Of a stretch of DNA of 32,000 nt, positions 5,368 to 28,128 are shown piece by piece (the first letter of the stretch is position 1; every line of letters starts with the position of its first letter). Made by a program: the position numbers and the translations under genes. Location of the stretch: positions 5,580,001 through 5,612,000 of the forward strand of contig NZ_CP074694.1 in the NCBI RefSeq assembly GCF_018398935.1, given 5' to 3'. A model generated the notes under the pieces. That model saw only the letters and a program-made list of their open reading frames with translations. It was not told the DNA's origin and made no database searches. The DNA is from Telmatocola sphagniphila. GTDB lineage: Bacteria > Planctomycetota > Planctomycetia > Gemmatales > Gemmataceae.

Positions 5368-5404
5368 GGTTAAGCGGTCGCGAACCCAGGAGTTCCCGGA
5401 AATC

Positions 5405-6583: not shown

Positions 6584-6629
6584 GAATTGCCCGTTGTCCG
6601 TACAGCAGCTGGCTTGAGAAATTTAGTGC

Positions 6630-7747: not shown

Positions 7748-8629
7748 TCACCAGGGTGGTATCACCTGGCCATCGTTCCGCATGCCGAGCAGTTCGTATG
7801 TCGTCGGGTCGATGGTTTCCGGAATGGACTGTACGTGCCCATCGGCAAAAGCGAACATGACCACCTGCATGTGCATGCTACCGAACTTCCAGGCCGTATC
7901 CTGCGGATTGGTCGTCAGAGGAAAAGCCCGCGAAGCCGCCCGACAGGAGCATTGATAGTAGTCGCCATTATAAATTGAGCAGTCCCACCACCCGACACCC
8001 AGGTTGCCTTGGGGCACCTGCTTCTCGCCCATCAGGATCGTATTGCTGGTACCGTCGGTGAAGTCGGCGAAGCGCGTGCCGGACCCCATCTGGAAGGCCG
8101 CCGTCATGCTCGGCTGCGAAGTCGTGGGATAATCGTATCCGGAACGGTCGATGCTGGCGGCATAGTCCCCGAGTGCTCCGGGGACGTTTTGACTCCCCGA
8201 ACCCAGGGTGGCAGAGCTGGGAATATCGCCACTGATGCTCCACATCGGGGCCGAATTGGCCACGCGTCGGGAAGGGCAGAAATAGATTGGTACCGCACTT
8301 CGTTGCGCGGTCGTGTTCTGCTGATAGTAAGTCAGCCCGAGATTCCACTGTCGGTAGAGATTGTCCTGCTCGATATAGGGCAGGATCAACACGGCCCAGG
8401 TCGCATAGCCCTGTCCCAGACGGCTGGGCGGGAACGAATTCATGTTGAATTCGTAATTGTGCATGGCCAGGGCGATTTGCTTCAGGTTATTCGAACAGCG
8501 CATGCGACTGGCCGCTTCCCGAGCTTTCTGCACCGCGGGCAGAAGCATGCCGATGAGAGTCGAGATAATCGCGATCACCACGAGCAGTTCGATCAGCGTG
8601 AACGCCGATCTGGCAGTTTTCCGTTTCAT
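7748..8629 (-). CDS. DUF1559 domain protein with prepilin-type N-terminal cleavage/methylation motif (planctomycete pseudopilin-like family)
   Basis: 293 aa. N-terminus 'AFTLIELLVVIAIISTLIGMLLPAVQKAREAASRMRCSNNLKQIALAMHNYE' and C-terminal 'FAFADGHVQSI' are the family signature. Confidence 0.9.
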   Translation of the reverse strand: MKRKTARSAFTLIELLVVIAIISTLIGMLLPAVQKAREAASRMRCSNNLKQIALAMHNYEFNMNSFPPSRLGQGYATWAVLILPYIEQDNLYRQWNLGLTYYQQNTTAQRSAVPIYFCPSRRVANSAPMWSISGDIPSSATLGSGSQNVPGALGDYAASIDRSGYDYPTTSQPSMTAAFQMGSGTRFADFTDGTSNTILMGEKQVPQGNLGVGWWDCSIYNGDYYQCSCRAASRAFPLTTNPQDTAWKFGSMHMQVVMFAFADGHVQSIPETIDPTTYELLGMRNDGQVIPPW

Positions 8630-10871: not shown

Positions 10872-11864
10872 TTACTTTTCGAAGATTTCCTCTTTCAGTC
10901 CCACATTCAGTTTCAGCTGGGTGTAGGAATACATCTCCAGGAGTTCCGGTTCGGTCTTGCCCTTCTTCGGTGCCTCGTAATTTTCGACGCGAACCGGTAA
11001 CTTCAAGGCTTTATCGAAGTATATGATCGACCTGTACGGGATATCCGGGTGTTTATCCTCGAGCGTTATTTCCAACTTCAAGCAATCTCGCTTGTCGAAT
11101 TGTACTTCGCTGAGGAGAATCTTAGATTTAACTCCGCCGGCTTTCTTATCCACATCGCCGATCTGTTCGATCAATTTACCGATCCCGGCCTGATCGATGG
11201 TATGCCGGTTATCCGACATAATCTTGGGATCGTCCACCGCCAGTGTCAGATAACCGACCAGTCCCTTCAATCCGGCCCCTTTCACGCGGGCTTTCCCCTC
11301 ATTTTTTCCTGCCATATAGGCAGCTTCCTGACCCTGCACCGATTTCGGACCCGTGAAGTGGAAGAATACGGCAAAAGGTTCCGCCCGGACGCTCATCTCG
11401 GCGGTCTGTTCATCCATCAGCTTGCTGCCGATACGTTCCTGCTTGATGAAAATGCAGGTGTAATCTTTGACCGATTTGTACGCCGAGCGAGACTGGTCGA
11501 TCCACTCCTTGATGATACCGGGCTTCGCCACCTCCGGTTCTCGCTTTTCTATATCGGGATCTTTCGATTTTTCCTTCGCTTTATCAGTATCCTTGCCCGC
11601 TTTGCGTTCCCGTTCTTCCCGTCGTTTCTGCAGCTTTTCCAGTTCGTCCTTGAGTTTGGCCTCCTTCTCGGCTTCCCGCTTGGCCTTTAACTCCTGTAGC
11701 CGTTTCATGATCGGGCCGACTTTCTTGTCGTCGTCGTCCTTATCCTTCTTCTTGTCGTCGTCTTTCTTTTTTTCGGTGGGATCCTGATCCGCAGCGGGCA
11801 GCGTCACGCAACCGACCGCCAGTACGGAACTGAGAGCAAAAAAAACCAGCCAACGTTGGAGCAT
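10872..11864 (-). CDS. DUF1571-like (LolA-fold) lipoprotein with a long Lys/Asp/Glu-rich low-complexity region
   Basis: 330 aa. Signal peptide with a lipobox-like 'LAVGC'. Residues ~30-110 are almost entirely K/D/E ('KKKDDDKKKDKDDDDKK...KREAEKEAKLKDELEKLQKRREERERK'). The C-terminal 200 aa ('YTCIFIKQERIGSKLMDEQTAEMSVRAEPFAVFFHF...GQEAAYMAGKNEGKARV') match my recollection of DUF1571. Confidence 0.65.
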   Translation of the reverse strand: MLQRWLVFFALSSVLAVGCVTLPAADQDPTEKKKDDDKKKDKDDDDKKVGPIMKRLQELKAKREAEKEAKLKDELEKLQKRREERERKAGKDTDKAKEKSKDPDIEKREPEVAKPGIIKEWIDQSRSAYKSVKDYTCIFIKQERIGSKLMDEQTAEMSVRAEPFAVFFHFTGPKSVQGQEAAYMAGKNEGKARVKGAGLKGLVGYLTLAVDDPKIMSDNRHTIDQAGIGKLIEQIGDVDKKAGGVKSKILLSEVQFDKRDCLKLEITLEDKHPDIPYRSIIYFDKALKLPVRVENYEAPKKGKTEPELLEMYSYTQLKLNVGLKEEIFEK

Positions 11865-14047: not shown

Positions 14048-15490
14048 TCAACCCCCTTTTTTCAGAAGGGAAAGTGCTTGGCCAAATAAGCTGGGCAGTG
14101 GGCTGGGATCGTATTCCCGGGGACTGTTGTAGACTTCCGGGCCGCGCGGCAGCTTCAGAATCTTTTGAATTTGGTCGAGCAGGTTGAGAAGAGCCACTTT
14201 GTCTGCGTCGTTCAGCGATTGAGTCTCTTTTAACACAAGCAGGGCGTAGTAGATCTGGCAAGCAGTATCCCAATCGAGGGGCTGCGATTGGGTAAGACGC
14301 TGCAGGAGTGCGTCGACTGTCAAAGGCTTAACCGGCTGCTTCAGGAGGAATAGAGCCTGGGCGATTTCCCTTGTCAGCAAAGCGGTATCTCCTTGTTGCA
14401 GAGTCTTTTGAATACCTGGAAAATCGTGGCCAGGTACAAAAAGAGTATTCCAAACTAACCTTCCCGAACTCGATGGTCGCCAGCCGGCCACCTTGAGGTC
14501 GTGATGGCAGGAGAAGCAATTGAATTCCGCCAACTCCGGCCAGGGCTTCCTTTCCACTCGATCCGCAAGCAATCCTAACGCCGCTTTGGCACGTTCCGTT
14601 GCTCCGGCCGACCAGGCGACGGCTTCCCACCCAACGGGTAGAGGTCGGTTACCCTGCAGTCGATCTTTTTCCGACCAATGCCTTGGTAAAGCCCGCAAAT
14701 AAGTCGCGAATTCGAAGTTCAACCGAGGATGCCCGGCGGCAATAAAATCGTGATTCACGTCTCGTAAAGGCTGATCTTTACTGGCGGGCGCTCCGACATG
14801 GCAACCGGCACACTGGGCGGCTCGGACATTCCAGTCGTAAAGGCGAGTCAGTCCGAATTGGGAATACGCTTTTTCCCGATCGGTCTGGTCGGTCCAGCTC
14901 ACATGTTCCGAGCGGTAGGCATTAGCCGCCCCATGACAGGCCTCGCAGGAAACGCCCTCTCGTAATAAAGCGACCTGTTCGTCCGTAAAAGTCTTCGACT
15001 CCAGGGTTTTGACCAGGAGCGGATTGGCATGGCAGGCCAGGCAACGAAGATCCTGCTGGGCCGAGTGATTCTCATTCGGATACAGGCGTTTCATCATGGC
15101 CTGCGATTTGGCATTCAAAAGTGTTTCGTAGGATTGGGCGTGAGGATCCTTCAGCGTCCAAATGGTTTGGCTGCTTTTCCAGAGCGATTGAGGGCTTTCC
15201 TGGCTGTCGGCAGGAGATTGGCTATGGCAGTTGCTGCCGCTGCATCCCGCCGAACCGAAAAGAGTGGGAGCCCCATGAATTTTCGAAGAAATCGGTGTGG
15301 TTTCGCCCGCAGGAGAGGGAGTGCTGGAGATCGCGCGCAGACCCGAGGGGATCAGGAAATAGACCCCGATCAACAGGGAGGCTATCAGCAAGCCGCTGAC
15401 AGTCGGTCGCAAAAGCATGGAGCGTTCTCGGGTTCGGAGGAAGACCACACCAGTTAAGTCACTTCTTGCGCGATTGTCCAGCGCGAACAT
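14048..15490 (-). CDS. Exported multiheme c-type cytochrome, five heme-binding motifs (paralog A; c554-like N-terminal part)
   Basis: Five motifs in order: CSGSNCH (CX4CH), CLACH, CEACH, CAGCH, CFSCH. It is colinear with the ORFs at 22869 and 24239, sharing blocks such as 'DPHA.aY', 'GV.CE.CHG', 'C..CHVG...H...AAGHP.L.FE' and 'EF.C..CHH'. The signal/anchor helix 'LLIASLLIGVYFLIP' begins after Met25, so the true start may be the ATG at 15418 rather than 15490. Confidence 0.85.
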   Translation of the reverse strand: MFALDNRARSDLTGVVFLRTRERSMLLRPTVSGLLIASLLIGVYFLIPSGLRAISSTPSPAGETTPISSKIHGAPTLFGSAGCSGSNCHSQSPADSQESPQSLWKSSQTIWTLKDPHAQSYETLLNAKSQAMMKRLYPNENHSAQQDLRCLACHANPLLVKTLESKTFTDEQVALLREGVSCEACHGAANAYRSEHVSWTDQTDREKAYSQFGLTRLYDWNVRAAQCAGCHVGAPASKDQPLRDVNHDFIAAGHPRLNFEFATYLRALPRHWSEKDRLQGNRPLPVGWEAVAWSAGATERAKAALGLLADRVERKPWPELAEFNCFSCHHDLKVAGWRPSSSGRLVWNTLFVPGHDFPGIQKTLQQGDTALLTREIAQALFLLKQPVKPLTVDALLQRLTQSQPLDWDTACQIYYALLVLKETQSLNDADKVALLNLLDQIQKILKLPRGPEVYNSPREYDPSPLPSLFGQALSLLKKGG

Positions 15491-15550: not shown

Positions 15551-16450
15551 TTGAAGCGGTCAAAGAATCCGACCGCCTTTCGGAGGACGGTGTTGCAATT
15601 TGGTTCTTCAGCTTCGGTGACTAGCCGAGTCGCTTCCCTGTTGGGTTGGGTCGTACTGGCCTGCGTTCCCATTGTTGGCTGGTACGCAGCGATTTTCTGG
15701 GGCTGGGTGAGCTGGCCGCGAGCGAGTGAACCGCTTCCTTTGGTACTTGGGGTTCTGGCGGCCGGGATTATTGGTTTTGAAATGGCTCTGGCGATTCGCA
15801 AAAGAGCGCGGGGCAAAAAGAATCGAATTACCGGCAAACATCTCAAGGCCACCAAATGGTGGACGCGCTGGCACGTCTATCTGGGAATTCTCGCTTTGCC
15901 CCTCGGAGTGCTGCATAGCGCCTTCCACTTCGGTGGGCCGCTGACAACGGTGCTCTTACTCTTGTTCGTAATTGTAATTCTCAGTGGAGTCTGGGGGCTG
16001 ATCCTGCAACAATGGCTGCCTTCCAAGTTGCTGATTGATTTTCCGAATGAGACGATCATCAGCGAAGTACCAGGGGTGATGAAATCGTACGAACCGGAAA
16101 TTGAAGGACTGATTCGTATTACTGCCGATGGAAGTTCGGAATTGAAGAGTATCCTGGAAACTCAACTGAAACCCTACCTGATGGAAGGGAAAAAGCATGC
16201 AATATTCAGCGATCCGGAGACTTGCCGTAAAGGATTTTCCCAATGGCGCGAACGCTATCCCTCCAGCAATCCGGCAGTGCTGCCGGCACTGGCCCGCCTG
16301 GAGACGATGTGCCAATGGCGCAGGGAATGGCGACGACAGGGTCGGGTCTATTTCTGGTTGCATAGTTGGTTACTCATCCATCTGCCGCTGTCTTTGGCCT
16401 TGTCCGTTTTGCTGATACTGCATGTGTTTGTGGCTTTGAAAATCTGGTGA
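15551..16450 (+). CDS. Unassigned 5-TM membrane protein with two Hx13H pairs (candidate di-heme b transmembrane electron carrier)
   Basis: 299 aa. Predicted helices at about aa 27-53, 62-82, 103-127, 131-156 and 266-297. His108/His122 sit in helix 3 (codons at 15872-15874 and 15914-15916). His277/His291 sit in helix 5 (16379-16381 and 16421-16423). A ~110-aa Arg/Lys-rich loop lies between helices 4 and 5. The start is a TTG and is uncertain. The stop is 7 nt before the next gene. Confidence 0.7.
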   Translation: MKRSKNPTAFRRTVLQFGSSASVTSRVASLLGWVVLACVPIVGWYAAIFWGWVSWPRASEPLPLVLGVLAAGIIGFEMALAIRKRARGKKNRITGKHLKATKWWTRWHVYLGILALPLGVLHSAFHFGGPLTTVLLLLFVIVILSGVWGLILQQWLPSKLLIDFPNETIISEVPGVMKSYEPEIEGLIRITADGSSELKSILETQLKPYLMEGKKHAIFSDPETCRKGFSQWRERYPSSNPAVLPALARLETMCQWRREWRRQGRVYFWLHSWLLIHLPLSLALSVLLILHVFVALKIW

Positions 16451-16457
16451 AGCGCGA

Positions 16458-18080
16458 ATGCCGATGAAGTACTCCCCCGGCCGGGAACGGTCGGATCGAT
16501 ACTCGAAAATCCGCGACTACTTCCAACAGCCCAACGGGGTGCAGTGGTGGAAGCGGACCTTGTGTGTAGTTGCGCTGCTGACGACCGTCTTCTGGATCGC
16601 CTGGGGGTTTGTAAAAGCCCGCGAAAGCAACAAACCCATTCTGGACGATTTTCGCTTCAGTCATGGGCCGCTAGCGAGTCCTCACACGACTCTTAACAGC
16701 GAATGCGGTGCCTGCCATAAAAAATTCGATTCCGTTGCGGAGTTCACCTCGCTCAGTGCCATCGATATTCACAAGCGCTGGCACAGCTTCGACTGTTCCA
16801 GTTGCCATGCAGGGCCCGCCGAGCAGAAAACTTATTACGCACCGCATCTCGAATCGTTTGTCGGAAAGAACAATTCCGGCGAGCAATGTTCTGACTGTCA
16901 TCGCGACCATTCCGGAGCGGACGCGTCGCTGGTTAAGATTCCCGACGGCAACTGTCTAAACTGTCACCGCGATCTCGGATCGATGGCCGAGTTCGTGAAG
17001 CACTCGACGCCGAATATTGCGAAACTGGCCGAGCATCCCAATTTTCGAATCCTTAAAGAACGCAATAGCCACACTGCGAACAATTACGATCGCGGTCTGA
17101 AGTTCAGCCATGCACAGCATCTGACGCCCGGTATGCCGATCTCCGCCACTCAGACCGGTCTTTTCACACTCGAAAAATTGAAGCCCAGCGATCGCGAGCG
17201 GTATGCCACGGCCGATCAGCTTAAACTCTTGCAATCTGCAGATTCCAAAGTTCTGCAACAGGCCGTGCAATTGCAATGTGTTTCCTGCCACACCAGCGAA
17301 CCGGCTCCCGGCCAGTTAAAAACCGATGGGGCGTACATGCAGCCGGTGAAGTTCGAGGAGCGCTGCCAGGCGTGCCACGCGCTCAATACCGGACCCATTC
17401 AAAGCCGCGATTTTCCCACGCTCAAGCTTCCGGCAATTCAGTTGCCGCATCGCTTGCAACGAAACGATCTGGCGTCTTACCTGCGGGCGAAAATCGCGGA
17501 TGTCATTTTGCACGATTCCACGTCGAATCCGAAACCGCCGATTAATGATCGGCTCGATCCCCGGCAGAAAGAGGTCGTGCAAACTTTTGAAGAACAGGTG
17601 CGAAAAATCCAAACTACCCTGGAGCGGATGATTTTTGACAGCGGCGAACACTGCGCCAAATGCCACACCTTCCAGCCGGCCAACAGTGAACCCCGGGCGA
17701 TCGCTCCGGTAAATATTCCTGCAGTCTGGCTGCCCCAGGGCCGGTTCAACCACGCTTCGCACAAAACGATGAATTGTGTCCTGTGTCACGAGAACAAGCA
17801 GCCGCTGTTCGTCGATGGAAAAGTGGATGTGACCGAACGCGGGCCAGTAGGTATCGCCGACTTCGATAGTTGCCGGGTCTGTCATTCACCGAAACATTTC
17901 GATGAACAGCGAAAGCAAGAAGTGGGCGGCGTCCGGCACGACTGCGTTTACTGCCATCGCTACCATAACGGCGAACGCGGACTATCGGCGACCGAAACAG
18001 ACCGGTGGAATAGGCTGATCCCAGAGACTTCAAAATCATCCGCGATTCTTCAAGGTCGGAGCGAAACACCGAAACCATGA
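16458..18080 (+). CDS. Membrane-anchored multiheme c-type cytochrome, ten CxxCH motifs (class III / c3-c7-like)
   Basis: 540 aa. An N-terminal ~34-aa tail is followed by the TM anchor 'TLCVVALLTTVFWIAWGFV'. Motifs: CGACH, CSSCH, CSDCH, CLNCH, CVSCH, CQACH, CAKCH, CVLCH, CRVCH, CVYCH. 'F.H..H' distal-ligand-type blocks are present (KFSHAQH, RFNHASH). Confidence 0.9.
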   Translation: MPMKYSPGRERSDRYSKIRDYFQQPNGVQWWKRTLCVVALLTTVFWIAWGFVKARESNKPILDDFRFSHGPLASPHTTLNSECGACHKKFDSVAEFTSLSAIDIHKRWHSFDCSSCHAGPAEQKTYYAPHLESFVGKNNSGEQCSDCHRDHSGADASLVKIPDGNCLNCHRDLGSMAEFVKHSTPNIAKLAEHPNFRILKERNSHTANNYDRGLKFSHAQHLTPGMPISATQTGLFTLEKLKPSDRERYATADQLKLLQSADSKVLQQAVQLQCVSCHTSEPAPGQLKTDGAYMQPVKFEERCQACHALNTGPIQSRDFPTLKLPAIQLPHRLQRNDLASYLRAKIADVILHDSTSNPKPPINDRLDPRQKEVVQTFEEQVRKIQTTLERMIFDSGEHCAKCHTFQPANSEPRAIAPVNIPAVWLPQGRFNHASHKTMNCVLCHENKQPLFVDGKVDVTERGPVGIADFDSCRVCHSPKHFDEQRKQEVGGVRHDCVYCHRYHNGERGLSATETDRWNRLIPETSKSSAILQGRSETPKP

Positions 18081-19969
18081 AGATTTCTATCCTACCTCGA
18101 CTGCATGAGATTCAGCATCACCACGGCTATCTGCCGGAGCAAGAGCTGCTTCATTTGGCCGGTGAACTGAATGTTCCATTGTATCGCATTCAGGAACTCA
18201 TCAGCTTCTTCCCGCATTTCCGGCCCGAATGGCAGAAACCGCCCCAGGTGGAAGTGCAGATCTGCCGGGATATGAGTTGCCATTTGAAGGGCAGTTCCGA
18301 CTGGATTCATTCGAAAGAAAAAGGACTGGCCGGGCTGGCCAAAGCCGGGGAAGTGGAGATCAAAGGGGTCTCCTGTCTGGGTCGGTGTGATCGGGCGGTG
18401 GCCTGTGTAGTTACCCGGCACGATCTTTCGCCTACTATCCACGAAGAGTTATTCGCCGGGCTGAGCCTTCCGGAATTTCGCGAAAAACTCACTCAGGTCA
18501 TTCAGGGTAAGAATCCCGCACCCACTCCCGATGGCCCTTCGAAACCGGGCGAGCCGTTCCGAGTCGATTCATCAGCCTGGATGATCGATCTCTATGCACA
18601 AGGCAACCTTCCGCCTTACACGGTCGCGCGTAAATTCGTCGAAGAGTTTCGGAAGCCAATAGCTCCACCCCAAGCGGGATTATCTTCCAAAGAGACCACG
18701 GCTTATATCGAGAAAGTGCACCCCTGGCTCAAGGTTCTCGAAAAATCGGGTCTGATGGGAATGGGCGGCGCGGGTGTACCGGCCGCCAAAAAATGGACCG
18801 ATGTCTGGCTGGAATCGCGGGCGGAAAAGTACATCGTGGCCAACGGCGATGAAAGCGAACCGGCTACCTTCAAGGATCGGGAATTGATTCTGCAGAAAGC
18901 CCATCTGCTGGTCGAAGGGATGCTGCTGGCCGGGCTAATGACCAATGCCACGGCCGGGATTATTTTCATTCGGCACGAATATCCGGAGCAGATTCAGGCG
19001 GCCCGATCGGCGATTGAACAGGCCCGTCAGGTCGGGATTTGCGGTAAGTCGATTCTGGGAACCGAACGGGATTACGATCTGGAAGTTTTCGTCAGCCCCG
19101 GCGGCTATATCTGCGGCGAGCAATCGGCGCTCATTGAGGCCATTGAAAACAAACGAGCTCAGCCTCGAAATCGACCGCCGGAACTGGGCACCAACGGCCT
19201 GTGGAACTGTCCCACCGTCGTCAACAATATCGAAACACTTTCCTGGACGCCGGCCATTCTGCACAATGGGGCGGACTGGTACATCAATCAAAATCGAGCC
19301 CCGTACAAAGGACGGCGATTTTTCTCGATCAGCGGCGATGTGCATAAACCCGGAGTATTCGAAGTCCCCATCGGCCTGACGCTGGGCGAATTGATCGATC
19401 TGGCGGGGGGTGTCCAAGGCGGCGAACTTGGGGCCGTGGCTACTTCGGGTCCTTCGGGGGGATTTCTTCCTGCGAGCTTCCGGATCGCCCCGAACGAAGC
19501 TCAGCCGAACCCCGAGCCGGTGAGCCTTCGGAGTTTGCCGCTCGATCTGACAGTCTTTCGCAATAAAGGCCGCGAATTGAAAATCGGTTACGATTTGATG
19601 CTGGGGGCCGGACTGGTCGTCTATAACAATACCCGCGATATGCTGCAGGCCGCCCGCAATGCCGCGCAGTTTTTCCGCAACGAATCCTGTGGCAAATGCG
19701 TTCCCTGTCGGATCGGTTCGCAAAAGATGGTCGAACTGGGCACCGGCCTTCTGGCTGAGCGGGAGGACCGCAAGCCCCAGGATATGCCCGATGAAGATTG
19801 CACCGCCCCGGCGACTAGCCCGGGCGATATTGCCCGGACCGTTAAAGACATGAAGCGCGCTTTGGAGCTGACCTCGATCTGCGGATTGGGAACCTCGGTC
19901 AGTAATCCGATCGCCTCTTATTTGCAATTTTTCGCTCCCAAGCCCGAGGGCGAAAGAAAATCGCGCTGA
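18077..19969 (+). CDS. Fused NuoE-like [2Fe-2S] / NuoF-like FMN-NAD(P)H-[4Fe-4S] flavoprotein (HoxEF/diaphorase-type)
   Basis: 630 aa. NuoE pattern Cx4C...Cx3C ('CRDMSC', 'CLGRC'). NuoF blocks 'GMGGAGVPAAKKW' (FMN), 'ANGDESEPATFKDRELI' (NADH), 'GGYICGEQSALIEAIENKRAQPR' and 'ESCGKCVPCRIG...ICGLG' ([4Fe-4S]). No signal peptide. The start overlaps the upstream stop (ATGA at 18077-18080). Confidence 0.92.
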   Translation: MKISILPRLHEIQHHHGYLPEQELLHLAGELNVPLYRIQELISFFPHFRPEWQKPPQVEVQICRDMSCHLKGSSDWIHSKEKGLAGLAKAGEVEIKGVSCLGRCDRAVACVVTRHDLSPTIHEELFAGLSLPEFREKLTQVIQGKNPAPTPDGPSKPGEPFRVDSSAWMIDLYAQGNLPPYTVARKFVEEFRKPIAPPQAGLSSKETTAYIEKVHPWLKVLEKSGLMGMGGAGVPAAKKWTDVWLESRAEKYIVANGDESEPATFKDRELILQKAHLLVEGMLLAGLMTNATAGIIFIRHEYPEQIQAARSAIEQARQVGICGKSILGTERDYDLEVFVSPGGYICGEQSALIEAIENKRAQPRNRPPELGTNGLWNCPTVVNNIETLSWTPAILHNGADWYINQNRAPYKGRRFFSISGDVHKPGVFEVPIGLTLGELIDLAGGVQGGELGAVATSGPSGGFLPASFRIAPNEAQPNPEPVSLRSLPLDLTVFRNKGRELKIGYDLMLGAGLVVYNNTRDMLQAARNAAQFFRNESCGKCVPCRIGSQKMVELGTGLLAEREDRKPQDMPDEDCTAPATSPGDIARTVKDMKRALELTSICGLGTSVSNPIASYLQFFAPKPEGERKSR

Positions 19970-20003: not shown

Positions 20004-22706
20004 ATGGAAGAAGAATATTATCTCGGTGGCAGTCTTCGCGATGAGGAGTCGCTGTTTTCGCGCGGCGAAGATGGCCGGCTGATTCGCCGGGAGGAGGCAC
20101 GCCGGGATCAGTTCGAAAAAGAATGTTCCATTTTCATCGACGGCCACGAAGTCAAAATCACCGAGGCCGTGCCGGTTACGGATCGCTTGGGCAATATCCT
20201 CTACGACGGTGAAGGAGAACCGATCCCCCGTCTAACCACGATTTACGATGCCGCGCAAAAACTGGTGAAAGATGGGATCTGGGCCAAAGAGGAACTTCAA
20301 AAGCGCATCCCGTTGCTGTGCCATCAATCGCACCTGACACCCATCGCGGTTTGCCGCATGTGCTCCGTTCACATCTGCAAAATTTCGACCGATAATCAAG
20401 GCGTACCCAAAAAGGATGCCGAAGGCAAAGAGGTCAAAAAGTCGGAACGCAAACTCTACGCGGCCTGCCATCACCCGGCCATTCCCAACCAAAATACGAT
20501 CATGCGGGTGACGACCCGCGTGGGTCCCGAACAGCCCAACGACGAGGAAAAACGGGCTTCCGAAAGCGTCCGAAATTCGACCAGTCTACTCGCGGAACTT
20601 TTGGCCGCCGATCATCTACCGGCCAGTAGCGCTAATGAGGATCGCTTCTACAACGAATTGCGCGAGGTGCACAAAAACACCCGGCCGGAACCCGTTCCAG
20701 AAGGGGCGACTGTTCCGAGACCGCGCTTCCTCAGTAATCCCGGGATCGAGCAGTCGAAAAATCTCGGACGCAATGCTGTCCTGCACCCCAAATCTCGTCC
20801 CTTGAAATCGGATCACGGCGAACTGCCGTATGCCTCTAAAGCCCTGAGTCTGATTCAAGTCGATCACGACCGCTGTATCCTTTGCGACCGCTGCGTGCGT
20901 TCCTGTACCGATGTTCGAGAATTCAAGATCATCGGTCATACCGGGAAAGGGTATCGAACCCGCATCAGTTTCGATCTCGATGAGGTCATGAACGAATCGG
21001 GTTGCGTGCAATGCGGCGAGTGCATGACTTCCTGCCCGACGGGAGCGCTGATGCTCAATCGCCGGGCTGCCCCCGACTGGAAAGAGCCGGGACTGGGAAA
21101 AATTGATATCGACCCGGCCAAGCCGTTACCTCCCGCAACTCCTCAAGGTCGCTTTCCCAGTGCCCAGGAGATGCGAACGCTCTCCGTACCCTATGTGGAG
21201 AAGCAATTAACCGGAAGCGAAGCCGAGAAACTCCGTTATTTCCAGCCATTTAAAGGCATCCCTTTCGCCTATCTGCGTTGGAACGAAGGGGCGGTGGTCG
21301 AACGGGAATTCGATCGCGAAACCACTCTCTGCGTGCAAAACGAATATGGCTCCACGGCTTTCATCCTGCTCGCGGGCGAGTTTGAGGTGAAAATTGCCCT
21401 TCCGAATGGCGAGAAGAAGTTCCCCGTGAAAGCGGGCGAATCGCTGATTCTGGGCGAATTGGCCTGTCTTTCCAATCGGCCTCGCGCCGCCTCCATCGTG
21501 GCCAAAGTCCAGAATGGTGTACGGCCGCGTGTTCTCGAAGTACGCCGGAATATGCTGTCGATGCTGTTGCGCAATCAATCCGACCGGCAGGTACTGGCTA
21601 AAGTCTACCGACAGCATGCCATCAGCGATACCTTGCGGAACAATTCCCTTTTCCGGGAACTTTCCGAAGCAGATCGCCGGGAGGCCGAAAGTCTGTTTTT
21701 GAATTCCAAGGCCGTGTTGATGCGGCGACAACCGGGGGAATGTCTGGTCGCGCAGGGAGCCCCGGCCAGCTATCTCTATCTGATCCGGTTTGGTTTTGTC
21801 AAAGTCACCAAGCGCGATTTCGAGCGCGAAGAAACCATAGCCGTTCTGCGCGAAAACGATTACTTCGGCGAAATCGCTCTGATTTCCGAGCATCCGCTAC
21901 TGCGGGACGAAATTAAAAAATATGGCATCGAAGTCGATCGGCGTACGGCGTCCTGCTTCGCTCTGGACGATGTCGAAGTCCTGCGCGTTCCCCGGGATGC
22001 CTTTGAAAGCTATTGCAAAATCAACCAGAACTTTGCCGAACGGCTGGCGAAGAAATCGCTCGAGCGGGTTCGACCGACACCGGCCCGCGATCGCAAAGCG
22101 ATAGAACTGCTGGACAGTTACGTCGATCAGGGTCTCTATCAGGCCCAGAACATCCTCGTGCTCGATCTGGAGCGCTGTACTCGCTGCGATGAATGTACGA
22201 AGGCCTGCTCCGATGCCCACGGTCCGGGTGCCAATGGTCTGAGCCATAGCCGTTTGCTTCGCGAAGGAGCTCGCTTCGGGAACTTCCTGGTGGCGACCGC
22301 CTGCCGATCCTGTCACATGCCGTACTGCATGAATGACTGCCCGGTGGATGCCATTCATCGTGGTAAGGAAAGTCTCGAAATTCGAATCGAAAATCATTGC
22401 ATCGGTTGCGGCTTATGCGAACGCAACTGCCCTTACGGTTCGATTCAAATGGTTCCCAATCCGGATGTGAAAGCGAAAGCTCTTCCGGGAGCTACCGGCC
22501 TCATTGCCCAGCCGTCTCGCAAGGCCTTGAACTGCGATCTCTGCCAGGGCTTGATCGATCGCGGAGAAGATACCTTCTGTGTACACGCCTGCCCGCACGA
22601 AGCGGCCTTCCGCTTCACCGATTCCCGGGCGACACAGTCGGGTGGCCGGGAAGAACGAGCCGGGGAGAAGCTAATGCGTCTGGTCACAGAAAAAACGCGG
22701 CGATAG
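20004..22706 (+). CDS. Fe-S fusion protein: HoxU/NuoG-N-terminal-like module + two cNMP-binding-like domains + DmsB/HybA-type four-cluster ferredoxin
   Basis: 900 aa with no signal or Tat motif. [2Fe-2S] pattern C106-x10-C117-x2-C120...C155. Two ferredoxin motifs, 'CILCDRCVRSC' and 'CVQCGECMTSCPTGAL'. cNMP-like domains at about aa 413-520 ('GELACLSNRPRAASIVA') and 548-665 ('YFGEIAL...RRTASCFAL'). C-terminal motifs 'CTRCDECTKAC', 'CRSCHMPYCMNDCP', 'CIGCGLCERNCP' and 'CDLCQGL...FCVHACP'. Confidence 0.9.
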   Translation: MEEEYYLGGSLRDEESLFSRGEDGRLIRREEARRDQFEKECSIFIDGHEVKITEAVPVTDRLGNILYDGEGEPIPRLTTIYDAAQKLVKDGIWAKEELQKRIPLLCHQSHLTPIAVCRMCSVHICKISTDNQGVPKKDAEGKEVKKSERKLYAACHHPAIPNQNTIMRVTTRVGPEQPNDEEKRASESVRNSTSLLAELLAADHLPASSANEDRFYNELREVHKNTRPEPVPEGATVPRPRFLSNPGIEQSKNLGRNAVLHPKSRPLKSDHGELPYASKALSLIQVDHDRCILCDRCVRSCTDVREFKIIGHTGKGYRTRISFDLDEVMNESGCVQCGECMTSCPTGALMLNRRAAPDWKEPGLGKIDIDPAKPLPPATPQGRFPSAQEMRTLSVPYVEKQLTGSEAEKLRYFQPFKGIPFAYLRWNEGAVVEREFDRETTLCVQNEYGSTAFILLAGEFEVKIALPNGEKKFPVKAGESLILGELACLSNRPRAASIVAKVQNGVRPRVLEVRRNMLSMLLRNQSDRQVLAKVYRQHAISDTLRNNSLFRELSEADRREAESLFLNSKAVLMRRQPGECLVAQGAPASYLYLIRFGFVKVTKRDFEREETIAVLRENDYFGEIALISEHPLLRDEIKKYGIEVDRRTASCFALDDVEVLRVPRDAFESYCKINQNFAERLAKKSLERVRPTPARDRKAIELLDSYVDQGLYQAQNILVLDLERCTRCDECTKACSDAHGPGANGLSHSRLLREGARFGNFLVATACRSCHMPYCMNDCPVDAIHRGKESLEIRIENHCIGCGLCERNCPYGSIQMVPNPDVKAKALPGATGLIAQPSRKALNCDLCQGLIDRGEDTFCVHACPHEAAFRFTDSRATQSGGREERAGEKLMRLVTEKTRR

Positions 22707-22793
22707 ATGAACCGATTTTGCCGTTTATTGCGCTCGATCCGCTAGTCGCGAAAAGAAGCGAAACGGATTTTGAGAATCCCCAACGATTAGAAT

Positions 22794-22822
22794 TTGACAG
22801 TTTTCGCTGGAACCGGAACAAT
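22794..22822 (+). promoter_or_regulatory. Sigma-70-like promoter candidate (TTGACA-N17-AACAAT) ahead of the tandem cytochrome pair
   Basis: Perfect -35 hexamer at 22794-22799, a 17-nt spacer and a weak -10 (4/6) at 22817-22822. It lies inside the only sizeable gap (162 nt) of the plus-strand gene run. Pattern match only; planctomycete promoter rules are poorly defined. Confidence 0.2.
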
Positions 22823-22868
22823 CCGTTAAAGCGAATATTTAAAACCTCCTACCCTCCCGGGAAGACTC

Positions 22869-24242
22869 TTGGTACGCAAGCTGTCGAGTCTGGGCATTCC
22901 CTTGCTTCTACTGGTTTTGGGAGCTGTGCTGAGCTTTCGTTCCGATGAGGTCGATGGTGGCGAACCACCGTCCGCCTCCTCAGCCAACTCCCACTTCTCG
23001 ATTTTGGGATCCTCCTCCTGTGCCAGTTCCGGTTGTCACGGCGGCGGTAAGCCTCGAAACCTGGGGAGTGAATGGAATACCTGGATCGATAGCGACCCTC
23101 ACGCGAAGGCCTATCGCATTCTGTTCAATGAAACCTCGGTACGCATGGCTCGCAATCTCAACTTGCGGGATTCCCAGAACCGAATTGTTCCCGCTCATGA
23201 AAATATGACCTGTCTGAAATGTCATTCGCCCCAGGCGACCGAGTCCTCGGCTCATGCGGACGGCGTCGGCTGCGAAAGTTGCCACGGCCCCGCCGGGAAA
23301 TATGGCACCGTGCACTATCTCGACTTCTGGAAAAATCTGACCGTCGAGGAAAAGGCCAAACAGTACGGTCTACTCGCGACCAAGAATATCGATTTCCGCA
23401 TTCAGCAGTGTGCGACCTGCCACGTCGGCAACGCCGAGCAGGATGTCGATCATAATCTGATTGCCGCCGGGCATCCGAGACTGCTATTTGAATATAGCAG
23501 CTTCCAGCATTCACCGAACTACACCCCGCACTGGAAAGAAAAAACCAGCAATTTCGAAATCCGATCTTGGATACTCGGCCAGATCGCAATTGCAAAAGCG
23601 ACTCTTGAACTCACTGAGGCGAGGGCACTCAAGAAAACGAATTGGCCGGAGTTCGGCGAGTTCAACTGCCAATCCTGCCATCACAAGATAGATGATGCAA
23701 ATTTTGCTTCTATTTCCAAATCGACGGGAATGTCGCCCTGGAATGACTGGGCATTCGCTATGCTCCCGGTGATCGGTACAGCTTTGAGTACCAAATCGGA
23801 ACAATTGCCGGAATTGAAATCGCTCGAACAATTGCGGAAGACGATGAATGAAAAACCGACCGATACCCAGACGATTCTGGCACTTACCCCACAGGCACTT
23901 CAGGAATTGGAGTGTTGGTCCCGAATCCTGACAGCCGCCAACTCGGTTCGCCTTGAGAATCTACCCGCTCTCAAATCTGCAATCGCAGCGGACATTTTGA
24001 ATGCCGATTCACGGACTTTGCGCTCACCCGATTGGGAGAGCCGGATGCAACACTTCCTGGCTCTGGCTCAGTTGCAATACGCTTCAGGGCAAAAGCTCAG
24101 TCCCGAGTTGAACGCAGTATTCGAGAAAATTCGTAACCAGTTGAAGTATCAGACGGGAACCAACGCTCCCCGTTCCGTGCCCGTCGAAGAGCAGACACAA
24201 GCCTGGAACGCGCTCCAAAATACCCTGACCCCGAAACCATGA
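22869..24242 (+). CDS. Exported multiheme c-type cytochrome, five heme-binding motifs (paralog B)
   Basis: 457 aa. Signal peptide 'LGIPLLLLVLGAVLSF'. Motifs: CASSGCH (CX4CH, 23019-23039), CLKCH, CESCH, CATCH, CQSCH. A heme-free helical C-terminal ~190 aa follows. The TTG start is uncertain. Confidence 0.85.
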   Translation: MVRKLSSLGIPLLLLVLGAVLSFRSDEVDGGEPPSASSANSHFSILGSSSCASSGCHGGGKPRNLGSEWNTWIDSDPHAKAYRILFNETSVRMARNLNLRDSQNRIVPAHENMTCLKCHSPQATESSAHADGVGCESCHGPAGKYGTVHYLDFWKNLTVEEKAKQYGLLATKNIDFRIQQCATCHVGNAEQDVDHNLIAAGHPRLLFEYSSFQHSPNYTPHWKEKTSNFEIRSWILGQIAIAKATLELTEARALKKTNWPEFGEFNCQSCHHKIDDANFASISKSTGMSPWNDWAFAMLPVIGTALSTKSEQLPELKSLEQLRKTMNEKPTDTQTILALTPQALQELECWSRILTAANSVRLENLPALKSAIAADILNADSRTLRSPDWESRMQHFLALAQLQYASGQKLSPELNAVFEKIRNQLKYQTGTNAPRSVPVEEQTQAWNALQNTLTPKP

Positions 24243-25831
24243 TTCCGCTGAAGATTCGACTAATCTTGGTGCTGATCTTGTTTGTGCTAAGCGCGATTTG
24301 GCTTGGTCCGCCGAGTTCGGCCGTGCACGCTCAGCAGAATCCACCCTTGCTGACGAAGCTGGATGAATTCGGGGCCATCAACTGCGTTGGCTGTCACGGC
24401 AGCAAGGACGGCCCGAGCTTCAAAGCCTATTCCGAAGGGCCTCTCAAAAGTGGCAAGTTCATTTTTTTGAACGAATACGAAATTTGGGATAAGCACGATT
24501 ACCATTCGAAGGCCTTCCTGAACATCGATCCAAAAACGAGTCCGCTTGCCAAAAAGATGCAGGACACTCTCAAATACAACCCGACGGAAGACAAGCGCTG
24601 CCTGGCCTGCCACGCCACAGCCCGAGTGAAAGATGCCGCGATCAAAGAGCTTCCGAACATCAAAATGACCGGATCAGATTCCTGGTTCAGCACCACTTCG
24701 GGAGTCAGTTGCGAGAGTTGTCACGGGCACGCGAAAAGTTGGTTCGGCGAACACTTCCTGGAGGGCTGGCGCAAAACGGCCGTGAACGAGAAAGCCGATA
24801 AAGGTTTAAACGATCTCCGCGACCCTGAAATTCGAACGAAAAAATGCCTTTCCTGCCATGTCGGTAATCAGCAGGAAGGGAAGTTCGTCACGCACGAGAT
24901 GTTTGCGGCCGGGCATCCGCCCCTGCCCGCATTTGAAGTGGCCACTTTCCTGGCATCTCAGCCGCGACACTATTACACGGCTCGGGAAAATCAGGGTTTG
25001 CGGAACCTAGAGAAAGATCCTCAATTCAAAACCTGGGAAATTTTCCATTACCGCTCGGGCGAGTTGGCCGAAGCTCGCAATGTGGCGATTGGCTCCGTGG
25101 TGACGTTCCAGGAAACGATTAAACTCTTCCTCGACGATCCCAAGAAGAATAACTCGCTCGATTTCTCCAATATGAATTGTTATGCCTGCCACCACGAATT
25201 GAAGATCCCTAGCGATCGGCAGGCCGCTGGATTCCCGGGAGTACCGGGCCGACCTTTGATCCGCCCGACTTCGGTCGAACTGTTCGAGGCCGTGGCTTCT
25301 TGCGTCGATCCCGAAGGGTATCCGGTTTTCCAGCAGAAACTGGACACCGCGTTGAAAGAGTTTCAGAAAGGTTTCGATAACGCTCCGTTTGGCGATCCAA
25401 AGGTTTTTAAATCTGCTGATGTCATGCTGAGTGGTCTTAGCACGGAAGTTCTAGAGAAAGTCAAAGCAACGAAATTCGATACATCGAAAAGTGAAGAGTT
25501 GTTCCGAAAATTGCTCGATCGGGTCGACGAGCGCGCCAATAAATCGAAAGTCTATCTCGATCACGATACGGCCCGTCAGCTGATCTGGGCTCTGGAAGTC
25601 GTGCGTAAGGATTTGAAAGAGAGTGGTCTGGTGAAATATTCCGTGACCGATGATAAAGTGCAGGCGATCTTCGGTAAAGTCTTCTCGCTGAATATTCGGG
25701 ACCTCAACTCGACGGATTCGAATAAGGCCCCGTTGGCGGAGATGGTGAAACCTCGCATGAGCGCCATCGAGAACTTTCCCTTAAACGAATTCCGCGAAGC
25801 GTTCAGCGTTTATCAGAAGCTGTTTCCGTAA
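24239..25831 (+). CDS. Exported multiheme c-type cytochrome, five heme-binding motifs (paralog C)
   Basis: 530 aa. Signal peptide ending 'SSAVHA|QQ'. Motifs: CVGCH (24383-24397), CLACH, CESCH, CLSCH, CYACH. A heme-free C-terminal ~230 aa follows. The ATG overlaps the upstream stop (ATGA at 24239-24242). Confidence 0.88.
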   Translation: MIPLKIRLILVLILFVLSAIWLGPPSSAVHAQQNPPLLTKLDEFGAINCVGCHGSKDGPSFKAYSEGPLKSGKFIFLNEYEIWDKHDYHSKAFLNIDPKTSPLAKKMQDTLKYNPTEDKRCLACHATARVKDAAIKELPNIKMTGSDSWFSTTSGVSCESCHGHAKSWFGEHFLEGWRKTAVNEKADKGLNDLRDPEIRTKKCLSCHVGNQQEGKFVTHEMFAAGHPPLPAFEVATFLASQPRHYYTARENQGLRNLEKDPQFKTWEIFHYRSGELAEARNVAIGSVVTFQETIKLFLDDPKKNNSLDFSNMNCYACHHELKIPSDRQAAGFPGVPGRPLIRPTSVELFEAVASCVDPEGYPVFQQKLDTALKEFQKGFDNAPFGDPKVFKSADVMLSGLSTEVLEKVKATKFDTSKSEELFRKLLDRVDERANKSKVYLDHDTARQLIWALEVVRKDLKESGLVKYSVTDDKVQAIFGKVFSLNIRDLNSTDSNKAPLAEMVKPRMSAIENFPLNEFREAFSVYQKLFP

Positions 25832-26520: not shown

Positions 26521-28128
26521 TTATCGGATCGGGGCCGTGAACGTCGTCTGCTTCTTGCTGTTTTCCATCGCTTCGAGAATCTTCGCTCGAATTTCCACGA
26601 ACGCATAAGCACACGCCGGATCGAACTGCTTGCCGGCCTCGGCTTTGACGATTGCCATGGCCTCTTCTGGCGGTTTGCCCCGCTTGTTCTCGTGATAAGC
26701 GCGGTTGCTGGTCATCGCGTCGAACGCATCGGCCACGGCTACGATTCGAGCCAAAAGCGGAATCTCTTCCTGCTTCAGCCCTTCCGGATAGCCGCGGCCA
26801 TCCCAGCGTTCGTGATGCGATTTGACGATGGGAATAATCGGATGCAGATCGGGCATGGTACGGATGATGTCGGCCCCCTTAGTAGTGTGGGTCTTCATCT
26901 CATCCATTTCATGCGGCTCGAGCTTACCCGGCTTCAGCAGAATCTCATCCCGAATGCCGATCTTACCGACATCGTGCAGCGGTCCGCCGAGCGAAATCAA
27001 TTCCAGATCCGAGGAGGACAATCCGAGTTGTTCACCGAGGAGAAGCGAATAGGTGGTCACCCGAGCCGTGTGGCCGCCGGTGTAATTGTCGCGCAGTTCG
27101 ATGAACTGAGCCAGCGTGCTGATGGTATTCAGGAAGACATCACGCTGCTTTTTCAGCAGGTGGGCGCACTCGATACCGGAAGAGACATTGGCTGCCAAGG
27201 CATCGGCCAGATGCAAATCGCCTTCGGTAAACGGCTTGCTGAAGTAGCCGCGATCCAGATGCAGAACGCCCAGTCGACGGCGCGGTGTGCGAAGCAGTAC
27301 GCAGAGGACGCTGGCCATGGAACCTTCGGAAATACTCTGCGTCCCCTTCAGTTCCGAATCGTCCTCGACGCTGCAGCAGAGAATGGACTCACCGCGATCG
27401 TAGCAGCGGTGCGACAATTTCTTGCTGAAGAAGAACCGGCTGTTGACTTCATTGCGGGTGCCGTTCGATACCGCTCGCAATTGCAGTACGTTGTTCGAAT
27501 CGGCTAGTACAATGGCGCCGCGCTGGGCTTCCAGAACCGAGACGGCGTCATCGAGAATCTGCCGGAGGAGATCGTCTTCTTTTTCGATGCTGACCAGGTG
27601 CTGGCCGGCGCGAAGCAGGGCCATCATCTGATCGCCGGGACGAGGCGAGCGATTACGGTCATAGACCATTCGCTGCACGCCTTCTTCCCAGGAGGAACTG
27701 GTGGCCGCTTCGACGTGAATTTGTTCGTCGAGGGCCGGCACGATCGAGCTGAGTTTGCTTTCGGGGCCTTTTTCGTTCAGTTCAACGATCATGGCCACTT
27801 TGCCGAACTGAACGATATCGCGAGAATGGAGTTGGCGTTCGCCGGCACCCAATTTCACGCCGTTGACGTAGGTGCCGTTGGTGCTATTAAGATCGCGGAC
27901 AAACCAGCCGTTGTTATTGTAGCGAACTTCGCCGTGACGCCGGCTGACAGAACTGTCGTCTAAAACGATTTCCAGGGTGCTCAAGCGGCCCGCGCGAAGG
28001 ATCTGATCCGATTCCCAGACTTTGCCTTTTACTTCCCCACTTATCCCGCGCAGCCTTAGTCGAGTCCCCAATTTTGAGAGAGAACCTATTAAATTCTTGT
28101 TTAAGCTGATAGCCGAACGAGTCGACAT
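26521..28128 (-). CDS. FHA - GAF - HD-GYP domain signalling protein (putative c-di-GMP phosphodiesterase)
   Basis: 535 aa. FHA block 'GRLSTLEIVLDDSSVSRRHGEVRYNNNGWFVRDLNSTNGTYVNG'. A central GAF-like region. HD-GYP catalytic blocks 'GGHTARV', 'GGPLHDVGKIG' and 'HHERWDGRGYPEGL'. Confidence 0.88.
   Translation of the reverse strand: MSTRSAISLNKNLIGSLSKLGTRLRLRGISGEVKGKVWESDQILRAGRLSTLEIVLDDSSVSRRHGEVRYNNNGWFVRDLNSTNGTYVNGVKLGAGERQLHSRDIVQFGKVAMIVELNEKGPESKLSSIVPALDEQIHVEAATSSSWEEGVQRMVYDRNRSPRPGDQMMALLRAGQHLVSIEKEDDLLRQILDDAVSVLEAQRGAIVLADSNNVLQLRAVSNGTRNEVNSRFFFSKKLSHRCYDRGESILCCSVEDDSELKGTQSISEGSMASVLCVLLRTPRRRLGVLHLDRGYFSKPFTEGDLHLADALAANVSSGIECAHLLKKQRDVFLNTISTLAQFIELRDNYTGGHTARVTTYSLLLGEQLGLSSSDLELISLGGPLHDVGKIGIRDEILLKPGKLEPHEMDEMKTHTTKGADIIRTMPDLHPIIPIVKSHHERWDGRGYPEGLKQEEIPLLARIVAVADAFDAMTSNRAYHENKRGKPPEEAMAIVKAEAGKQFDPACAYAFVEIRAKILEAMENSKKQTTFTAPIR

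Follow-up and report, generated by a model that had tools for sequence, protein, structure and literature searches.

What might a protein do that carries two cyclic nucleotide-binding (CNB) domains between two sets of iron-sulfur (Fe-S) clusters? The question is raised by an open reading frame (ORF) of 900 codons in Telmatocola sphagniphila (Planctomycetota; Gemmatales), within a window of 32,000 nucleotides (NCBI RefSeq assembly GCF_018398935.1, contig NZ_CP074694.1, positions 5,580,001 to 5,612,000 of the forward strand) to which all nucleotide coordinates below refer. An initial annotation of this DNA had described a single ORF with three parts, namely a HoxU/NuoG-type Fe-S module, two tandem domains of the cyclic nucleoside monophosphate (cNMP)-binding type and a four-cluster ferredoxin, and each element that it listed was found at the coordinates it gave. 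Our reading of the domain anatomy and of the surrounding operon is that the fusion protein may be the Fe-S connecting subunit of a cNMP-controlled conduit that would carry electrons from NADH to periplasmic cytochromes, a proposal to which we give about an even chance. The parts of the protein are as follows.

20004..22706, plus strand: the whole ORF, Fe-S / two CNB / Fe-S fusion protein, 900 residues, ATG start.
20118..20519, plus strand: [2Fe-2S] domain of the NuoG/HoxU N-terminal type, residues 39–172 (C106, C117, C120, C155).
20520..20849, plus strand: remnant of a His-ligated-cluster region and variable linker, residues 173–282 ('LLAADH' kept, cluster cysteines absent).
20850..21059, plus strand: ferredoxin-like domain for two [4Fe-4S] clusters, residues 283–352 (C291/294/297/301 and C334/337/340/344).
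21060..21239, plus strand: linker, residues 353–412, the site where split-gene relatives divide.
21240..21638, plus strand: CNB domain 1 (CNB1), residues 413–545, Pfam cNMP_binding, with the phosphate-binding cassette (PBC) GELACLSNRPRAA.
21639..22073, plus strand: CNB domain 2 (CNB2), residues 546–690, with the PBC 'FGEIAL...RRTAS' (residues 621–649, nucleotides 21864–21950).
22152..22619, plus strand: polyferredoxin for four [4Fe-4S] clusters, HycB/HydN/DmsB-like, residues 717–872, 16 cysteines.

The initial annotation had itself allowed that the ORF might join separate genes through a frameshift or an assembly error. Searched at E <= 1e-10, a set of 5.8 billion protein clusters gave 808 matches, and the 120 listed are mostly full-length proteins of 840–1100 residues with the same Pfam set. 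Such an artefact is ruled out because these 120 proteins and 80 genome loci match over nearly the full length, with a conserved start methionine (M1, invariant in a 41-sequence alignment) and the same recurring domain order: [2Fe-2S], two [4Fe-4S], two CNB domains resembling those of PKA-R and PKG, and the four-cluster polyferredoxin. Conservation was counted in an alignment of 187 homologues. The protein has 35 cysteines, 28 of them with classical cluster-binding spacing, and all 28 are kept in 186–187 of the 187 sequences, which is not the work of chance. Mean pairwise identity is highest in the Fe-S modules (0.76 for the two-[4Fe-4S] domain and 0.72 for the polyferredoxin) and lowest in the linkers (about 0.40), with the CNB domains between them at 0.49 and 0.43. 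An AlphaFold2 (AF2) model of the whole chain reached a mean pLDDT of 72.7 and a pTM of 0.65. A TTG-initiated ORF of 183 residues (22397–22948, plus strand), which runs over the 3' end of the fusion gene in a different frame, has no Pfam match and is probably not a gene.

The family is widespread in the planctomycetes. The listed homologues come from Gemmata, Zavarzinella, Limnoglobus, Fimbriiglobus and other Planctomycetota, and bear only the names 'cyclic nucleotide-binding domain-containing protein' or 'Fe-S-cluster-containing hydrogenase component 2/CRP-like cAMP-binding protein'; the closest among the listed matches shares 47% identity with the fusion protein, and the source lineage is barely sampled in databases. 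With each GTDB species represented by one genome, a scan showed a relative in 446 genomes, and 78 of the 80 loci kept from these belong to Gemmatales, Isosphaerales, Pirellulales or Planctomycetales, so that the domain order which the initial annotation had thought worth following into other genomes recurs across four planctomycete orders. One of the remaining two loci is labelled Chthoniobacterales and the other only 'Bacterium'. A profile search of 1.84 billion representatives at 50% identity returned 1144 proteins at E <= 1e-30.

For the middle region, the nucleotide ranges first proposed for tandem cNMP-binding-type domains are correct and correspond to residues 413–520 and 548–665. Pfam cNMP_binding (PF00027) matches here in three stretches (E = 6.9e-26, 90.5 bits versus a cutoff of 27.5), the best of those, in CNB2, covering residues 576–631. 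The AF2 model shows two beta-barrel-plus-helix units (residues ~413–545 and ~546–690, pLDDT 80–94), and the best 50 Foldseek matches in the PDB are all tandem CNB-A/CNB-B structures of PKG or PKA-R, with E down to 6e-15 and a probability of 1.0. A profile search of PDB sequences agrees with this assignment. The reservation that this region might prove not to be a cNMP-binding fold is thus answered, Pfam and Foldseek both being positive. At the residue level, LGELACLSNRPRAASIVA of the window protein falls on the PBC FGEAALIHNTQRSATIMA of PKG, and YFGEIALISEHP falls on YFGERALLYDEPR of PKG.

Both CNB domains carry the PBC signature G-E-x-A...R-[TSA]-A. In the cassette of CNB1 (GELACLSNRPRAA, residues 484–496, nucleotides 21453–21491) G484 is kept in 187/187 homologues, E485 in 186/187, R494 in 186/187 and A496 in 182/187; the corresponding counts for CNB2 are 187/187 for G622, 178/187 for E623, 187/187 for R647 and 183/187 for A649. 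The spacing from Glu to Arg is the canonical 8 in all 187 sequences in CNB1. In CNB2 it is 8–10 in 82 members and 18–25 in about 96, within a family range of 8 to 42; the window protein has 23, owing to an insertion of ~14 residues modelled with a helix at residues 631–639. Because the ligand-contacting residues of the PBC are near-invariant in both domains, they appear to be under strong purifying selection, which argues for a working sensor, and the pattern looks like that of a working cyclic-nucleotide site and not of a decayed linker.

Two other views of the tandem have to be weighed against these counts. It might be a ligand-blind scaffold or oligomerization element, the protein being a constitutive Fe-S wire of a complex that depends on the NuoE-NuoF flavoprotein (NuoEF) encoded upstream. 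The identity of the CNB domains (0.43–0.49), which lies below that of the Fe-S modules (0.72–0.76), would fit such a role, as would the tolerance of PBC2 for insertions from 10 to more than 30 residues and the finding of no cyclase gene in the window, but a pure scaffold offers no reason for the ribose and cyclic-phosphate contacts (Gly-Glu and Arg-x-Ala) to be kept in 178–187 of the 187 homologues in both domains, nor for the spacing of PBC1 to be canonical in every member, and we regard a scaffold as decidedly unlikely. Alternatively, the pair could bind a ligand other than cyclic AMP (cAMP) or cyclic GMP (cGMP), for instance another nucleotide or, as trypanosome PKA-R does, a nucleoside, and so read out a metabolite instead of a second messenger. 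Structures of nucleoside-binding trypanosome PKA-R are among the Foldseek matches at similar scores (one such entry is titled as a T318R mutant), the residue after the PBC Arg is variable (T, S, N or A), and PBC2 carries its insertion. The PBC Arg, which is replaced in the cAMP-independent trypanosome PKA-R proteins, is however kept in both CNB domains (186/187 and 187/187), and a different ligand of this kind seems to us quite unlikely. Directly after the PBC Arg, Thr or Ser predominates, and CNB1 of the window protein has Ala; judged from PKA, PKG, CAP and HCN, this position does not tell cAMP from cGMP. A regulator of the CRP/FNR type is ruled out since no helix-turn-helix (HTH) family is among the Pfam matches of the fusion protein. 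A further cysteine, C443 (nucleotides 21330–21332), lies inside the CNB1 barrel and outside any cluster motif, and is kept in 175/187 homologues.

On the N-terminal side, the [2Fe-2S] pattern C106-x10-C117-x2-C120...C155, the motif 'CILCDRCVRSC' (C291–C301) and the second cysteine motif CVQCGECMTSCP (C334–C344) all stand where they had first been read, and the four cysteines of the first cluster and the eight of the two-[4Fe-4S] domain are invariant in 187/187 homologues. The [2Fe-2S] domain, of the beta-grasp type, is modelled with pLDDT 85–95; residues 30–97 of Nqo3 align over its cysteines in a PDB profile search, in which the N-termini of hydrogenases and formate dehydrogenases also match residues 243–355. 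Pfam Fer4_Nqo3 (PF22117) scores 32.1 bits versus a cutoff of 27 over residues 283–349, and Fer4_7 and related families match as well. In NCBIfam, over residues 280–354, the N-terminal regions of hydrogenase A6, HoxU and NuoG give partial matches below cutoff; the HoxU equivalog NF005745 (63.3 versus 333 bits) and the NuoG equivalog TIGR01973 (43.5 versus 470 bits) both failed, and neither the fusion protein nor any other protein of its cluster scored above any NCBIfam cutoff. The HxxxCxxCxxxxxC motif of the His-ligated [4Fe-4S] cluster (N5 / FS4C) is absent from the window protein and from all 187 homologues, in 92 of which the stretch between C155 and C291 is free of cysteine; H204 is kept in 171/187. 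Because this cluster is missing throughout the family, the N-terminal module is of a reduced HoxU/NuoG type. The NuoG/HoxU-type architecture assigned to it by the initial annotation therefore holds for the [2Fe-2S] domain, the Fer4_Nqo3 match and the NuoEF partner upstream, but does not extend to the His-ligated cluster.

The C-terminal module has its sixteen cysteines in four groups (C725/728/731/735, C767/770/775/779, C799/802/805/809 and C844/847/859/863), each cysteine being invariant in 186–187 of 187 homologues. Pfam ferredoxin families match residues 762–867, partial matches below cutoff to ArrB, DsrO, HydN and DmsB of NCBIfam span residues 712–870, and the best PDB match is HycB3 of 7qv7. 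The module had been taken for an electron-transfer subunit of the DmsB/HybA/FdnH type, that is, of the complex iron-sulfur molybdoenzyme (CISM) family. Its four cysteine clusters agree with that assignment, whereas Pfam Fer4_11 (PF13247), the CISM beta-subunit type, stays below cutoff in the window protein (17 versus 26.2 bits), the DmsB and ArrB equivalogs failed (55.7 versus 214 bits and 66.6 versus 450 bits), and neither a molybdopterin domain nor a hydrogenase gene turned up among the ORFs of the cluster or of the window. With Fer4_11 below cutoff and no molybdopterin partner, the module is best described, to judge by these matches, as a HycB/HydN-like polyferredoxin and not as a CISM subunit in the strict sense. 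It follows closely on the sensor tandem: in the AF2 model the C-terminal helices of CNB2 (residues 664–708) close the tandem and are joined to the first cluster-binding strand by a short conserved link, 'QGLYQxQ..LVLDLxxCTRCDEC'.

Relatives in which the modules are joined differently bear on how they work together. One protein of 1483 residues (P0181) contains NuoE, NuoF, Fer2_4, two [4Fe-4S], cNMP and polyferredoxin domains in a single chain. Because it joins them in one polypeptide, P0181 supports, in the manner of a Rosetta stone, the view that NuoEF and the window protein are parts of a single enzyme. The best supported assignment would accordingly be that NuoEF and the HoxU-like module make up an NADH-dehydrogenase (diaphorase) unit and that the polyferredoxin extends the chain toward the membrane. 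Two loci show the opposite arrangement, with the fusion divided (L084, 1246–3997, and L085, 1121–3743). Each has, in this order, a NuoF-like gene with 46–47% identity to the window NuoEF, a HoxU-like gene of 325–339 residues that matches window residues 1–352/357 (33–35% identity), and a CNB-CNB-polyferredoxin gene that matches residues 409/416–872 (39–40% identity), so that the split falls in the linker of residues 353–412. Stand-alone CNB-CNB-polyferredoxin proteins of ~500–560 residues have their own Met just before CNB1 and both PBCs intact. The CNB pair thus appears always to travel with the polyferredoxin, and since L084 and L085 encode the HoxU-like part and the CNB-polyferredoxin part as separate genes, the two Fe-S halves need not be linked covalently. 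The earlier idea that sensor domains bridge these halves is borne out insofar as the domain order is real and conserved; its covalent form is shown by the split loci to be dispensable. In L085 a CCP_MauG dihaem cytochrome c peroxidase gene (4745–5818) lies ~1 kb downstream of the split CNB-polyferredoxin gene, a single observation that may hint at a periplasmic electron sink.

The neighbouring genes in the window give the fusion protein its likely partners.

15551..16450, plus strand: integral membrane protein, 285–299 residues, putative dihaem b protein, four invariant His.
16458..18080, plus strand: membrane-anchored decahaem cytochrome c, 540 residues, 10 CxxCH, Pfam multihaem families.
18077..19969, plus strand: NuoE-NuoF fusion flavoprotein with [2Fe-2S], flavin mononucleotide (FMN)/NADH site and [4Fe-4S], by Pfam.
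22869–24242, plus strand: c554-like pentahaem cytochrome, Pfam Cytochrome_C554, signal or anchor sequence.
24239–25831, plus strand: c554-like pentahaem cytochrome, Pfam Cytochrome_C554, signal or anchor sequence.
14048..15490, minus strand: third c554-like multihaem cytochrome, divergent, Pfam Cytochrome_C554 and C7, with relatives in most loci.

The Pfam set of NuoEF comprises 2Fe-2S_thioredx, Complex1_51K, SLBB and NADH_4Fe-4S. In the window its stop lies 35 nucleotides before the start of the fusion gene, and a NuoEF gene on the same strand ends within 1 kb upstream in 63 of the 65 loci with enough flanking sequence. Neither NuoEF nor the fusion protein has a hydrophobic or transmembrane segment. 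The plus-strand genes upstream follow one another closely or overlap, the membrane protein ending at 16450 and the decahaem cytochrome starting at 16458, with the stop of the latter overlapping the start of NuoEF (18077–18080). Among the 37 well-flanked loci (at least 6 kb on each side of the fusion gene), the membrane protein is co-located with the fusion gene in 35, and it is accompanied by the decahaem cytochrome in 34. Cultured Gemmata and Zavarzinella carry the operon. Canonical complex I, hydrogenase or formate dehydrogenase membership is ruled out, as no such subunits are present in the cluster and equivalog scores are far below cutoff.

These counts also bear on a simpler account, in which the fusion protein and NuoEF would be a soluble, cNMP-regulated NAD(H):ferredoxin-type diaphorase resembling HoxEFU, which works with soluble ferredoxin, and the membrane and cytochrome genes would be separate and merely co-localized. 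That the membrane protein has no recognizable Fe-S docking or haem-b family match is in keeping with this account, and the short flanks of the split-form loci L083–L085 contain no membrane protein or decahaem gene. Yet the two genes occur together in 34/37 well-flanked loci across Gemmatales, Isosphaerales, Pirellulales and Planctomycetales, and the genes of the window are packed or overlap on one strand; a purely soluble diaphorase is thus, in our judgement, unlikely. The initial annotation had spoken of a 'membrane-side' cluster chain, and for the conduit reading this is plausible to the extent that the operon also contains genes for a predicted membrane partner and for periplasmic cytochromes.

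The membrane protein has four histidines, H108, H122, H277 and H291, that are invariant in 51 sequences and form two H-x13-H pairs on two long helices, which suggests that it may hold two b haems. Its AF2 model is confident (pLDDT 88.9), and its 32 homologues are all 'hypothetical' and without Pfam domains. In Pfam searched at E <= 10, Ferric_reduct reached only E = 2.4; as neither Pfam, the homologue names nor Foldseek gave an assignment, the label 'ferric-reductase-like' was kept only as an analogy. The start of the gene is ambiguous (TTG 15551, GTG 15590 or TTG 15593); a metagenomic protein on a 1.2-kb contig (P0121), 98% identical, starts at the position of TTG 15593.

The decahaem cytochrome has one N-terminal transmembrane helix (residues 33–54), its ten CxxCH motifs are invariant in 59 sequences, and all cytochromes of the operon region carry N-terminal hydrophobic signal or anchor segments. 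Relatives of the two downstream c554-like cytochromes lie within ~6 kb of the fusion gene in most loci; the one on the minus strand has four CxxCH and one CxxxxCH. NCBIfam and PDB sequence searches with the periplasmic cytochromes gave only weak c554 (E = 0.006), DmsE or NrfB-like haem-packing matches. The weak resemblance to cytochrome c554 recalls carriers of periplasmic oxidation pathways and, together with the reversibility of NuoEF-type modules, could be taken to mean that electrons run the other way, from low-potential periplasmic cytochromes through the membrane protein to NAD+, with the CNB pair throttling the input. Inward transfer to NAD+/NADH against the membrane potential, however, needs donors of very low potential, and no periplasmic oxidizing enzyme was recognized in the window; we hold this reverse direction to be very improbable. 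Adjoining the cluster is a gene for an FHA-GAF-HD_5 (HD-GYP-like) protein (26521–28128, minus strand), which could, from its domains, be a phosphodiesterase acting on a nucleotide second messenger. At other loci it does not recur beside the cluster, and short weak matches were found in 3 loci only.

Taken in the outward direction, which we infer along with a complex of the soluble, membrane and cytochrome proteins, the conduit would work as follows. The FMN of NuoEF would be the site where NADH is oxidized or NAD+ is reduced, and from there electrons would pass through the [2Fe-2S] cluster and the [4Fe-4S] pair of the HoxU/NuoG-like module to the four-cluster polyferredoxin. The latter would dock on the operon's membrane protein, whose two putative b haems could take the electrons across the membrane to the anchored decahaem cytochrome c and from there to the c554-like periplasmic cytochromes. 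Lying just N-terminal to the polyferredoxin, the CNB tandem would have cAMP or cGMP as its cyclic-nucleotide ligand, and a hinge or lid movement like that of PKA-R and PKG tandems would reposition the polyferredoxin, or dock and undock it, relative to the HoxU-like module, so that electron flow could be switched post-translationally by the ligand. Since the CNB pair belongs with the polyferredoxin in the split loci, any gating would more likely act on the docking or positioning of that module. In the mechanics of PKA-R, Epac and PKG the C-terminal helices of a CNB domain are the moving output element, and because those of CNB2 run straight into the first cluster strand, ligand-driven repositioning or docking of the polyferredoxin against the last cluster of the HoxU-like module would, by analogy, be the most economical mechanism. 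Export of NADH electrons to periplasmic cytochromes would bypass energy-conserving sites, which would therefore supply a rationale for tight and fast control.

Several findings weigh against this picture. The geometry between modules in the AF2 model is unreliable, with Fe-S regions below pLDDT 50 and the pTM of 0.65 given above, and the lineage-variable insertion in the PBC of CNB2 could alter or abolish canonical binding there. A nucleotide cyclase was looked for in the window and none was found. A Foldseek search of the PDB gave no significant match for the fold of the membrane protein (best E 0.58), and DUF4405 stays below threshold for it (21.9 bits versus a cutoff of 26.7 in Pfam at E <= 10). 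Two of the 65 loci, L038 and L078, have no adjacent NuoEF upstream, and L038 has no cluster partner within 8 kb; these cases may reflect rearrangement or a second copy. Synteny alone, moreover, does not prove a physical complex.

All of the domain types involved are already known; it is their combination and the operon that are unfamiliar. The combination is visible in database names without a curated family, and no description of the Fe-S/CNB/Fe-S architecture was found in the full-text literature searched, which leaves out most subscription journals. What is defined here is a widespread undescribed operon, present in at least 446 species genomes, that includes a membrane protein family and cytochromes outside named families and that may connect cytoplasmic NADH with the periplasm, bypassing the quinone pool. 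More tentatively, and in our estimate with somewhat less than an even chance, the operon would encode an unrecognized respiratory or redox complex in which a complex-I-type NADH module is connected, via the polyferredoxin and a new dihaem membrane protein, to multihaem cytochromes in the periplasm, its flow switched by a cyclic nucleotide on the PKA-like tandem. Respiratory electron flow is known to be controlled by transcription, by covalent modification or by substrate and product levels, and we know of no Fe-S electron wire with a second-messenger sensor of its own. If the proposal is true, this would be the first second-messenger-gated electron-transfer chain. Gating of the polyferredoxin by the CNB tandem would amount to a new regulatory principle, in which cAMP or cGMP sets the distance between clusters through a change of conformation, and cyclic nucleotides would gain a function in the bioenergetics of Planctomycetota.

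The remainder of the window holds a background typical of planctomycetes (2001–2954, 3010–7601, 7748–8629 and 10872–11864, all on the minus strand), with a methenyl-tetrahydromethanopterin cyclohydrolase (MCH), a MoxR-DUF58-transglutaminase operon, a DUF1559/N-methyl protein and a DUF1571 protein.

Among known systems, HoxEFU, the NuoEFG N-module and the N-terminal Fe-S domains of HydA and FdsA resemble the first part of the fusion protein in having a NuoE-NuoF flavoprotein partner directly upstream and a C-x10-C-x2-C...C [2Fe-2S] pattern followed by a ferredoxin-like domain for two [4Fe-4S] clusters. The fusion proteins differ from them in lacking the His-ligated [4Fe-4S] cluster family-wide and in carrying two CNB domains and a polyferredoxin in place of a catalytic domain, and the window cluster contains no hydrogenase, molybdopterin or other Nuo subunits. 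The C-terminal module shares its four cysteine groups, CxxCxxCxxxC(P) and CxxC-xn-C-xxx-CP, with HycB and HydN of formate hydrogenlyase and of the hydrogen-dependent CO2 reductase and with DmsB, ArrB and DsrO of the CISM family. Unlike these, it is fused behind a sensor tandem, scores below the Fer4_11 cutoff and has no catalytic partner with a Mo-bis(pyranopterin guanine dinucleotide) cofactor or of the hydrogenase type in the window cluster.

CRP/FNR-family proteins (CRP, FNR, CooA) likewise combine a CNB-type effector domain with redox cofactors in one polypeptide, whereas the fusion protein has no HTH, keeps its Fe-S clusters out of the sensor domain, in ferredoxin modules of their own, and has a tandem that is PKA-like and not CRP-like. 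For the membrane side the comparison is one of analogy only. Transmembrane redox complexes that join periplasmic multihaem cytochromes to cytoplasmic Fe-S proteins are known in the Tmc and Hmc of sulfate reducers, and NarH docks on NarI; the layout proposed here, of periplasmic multihaem cytochrome, membrane protein with two His pairs and cytoplasmic Fe-S protein, would be similar. NOX5 is a regulated transmembrane electron exporter controlled by Ca2+, and in the planctomycete system, too, the passage of electrons across the membrane may answer to a signal from the cytosol. The membrane subunit showed no relationship in sequence or fold to any of these, and the input would differ from theirs in being a complex-I-type NADH module and the regulator in being a CNB tandem. 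The closest relatives of that tandem, in sequence and in fold, are the CNB-A/CNB-B pairs of PKA-R and PKG, which share its two consecutive beta-barrels and canonical PBC. About half of the members differ from them by the insertion in the PBC of CNB2, and in this bacterial protein the output element is not a kinase or a kinase-inhibitor segment but an Fe-S polyferredoxin.

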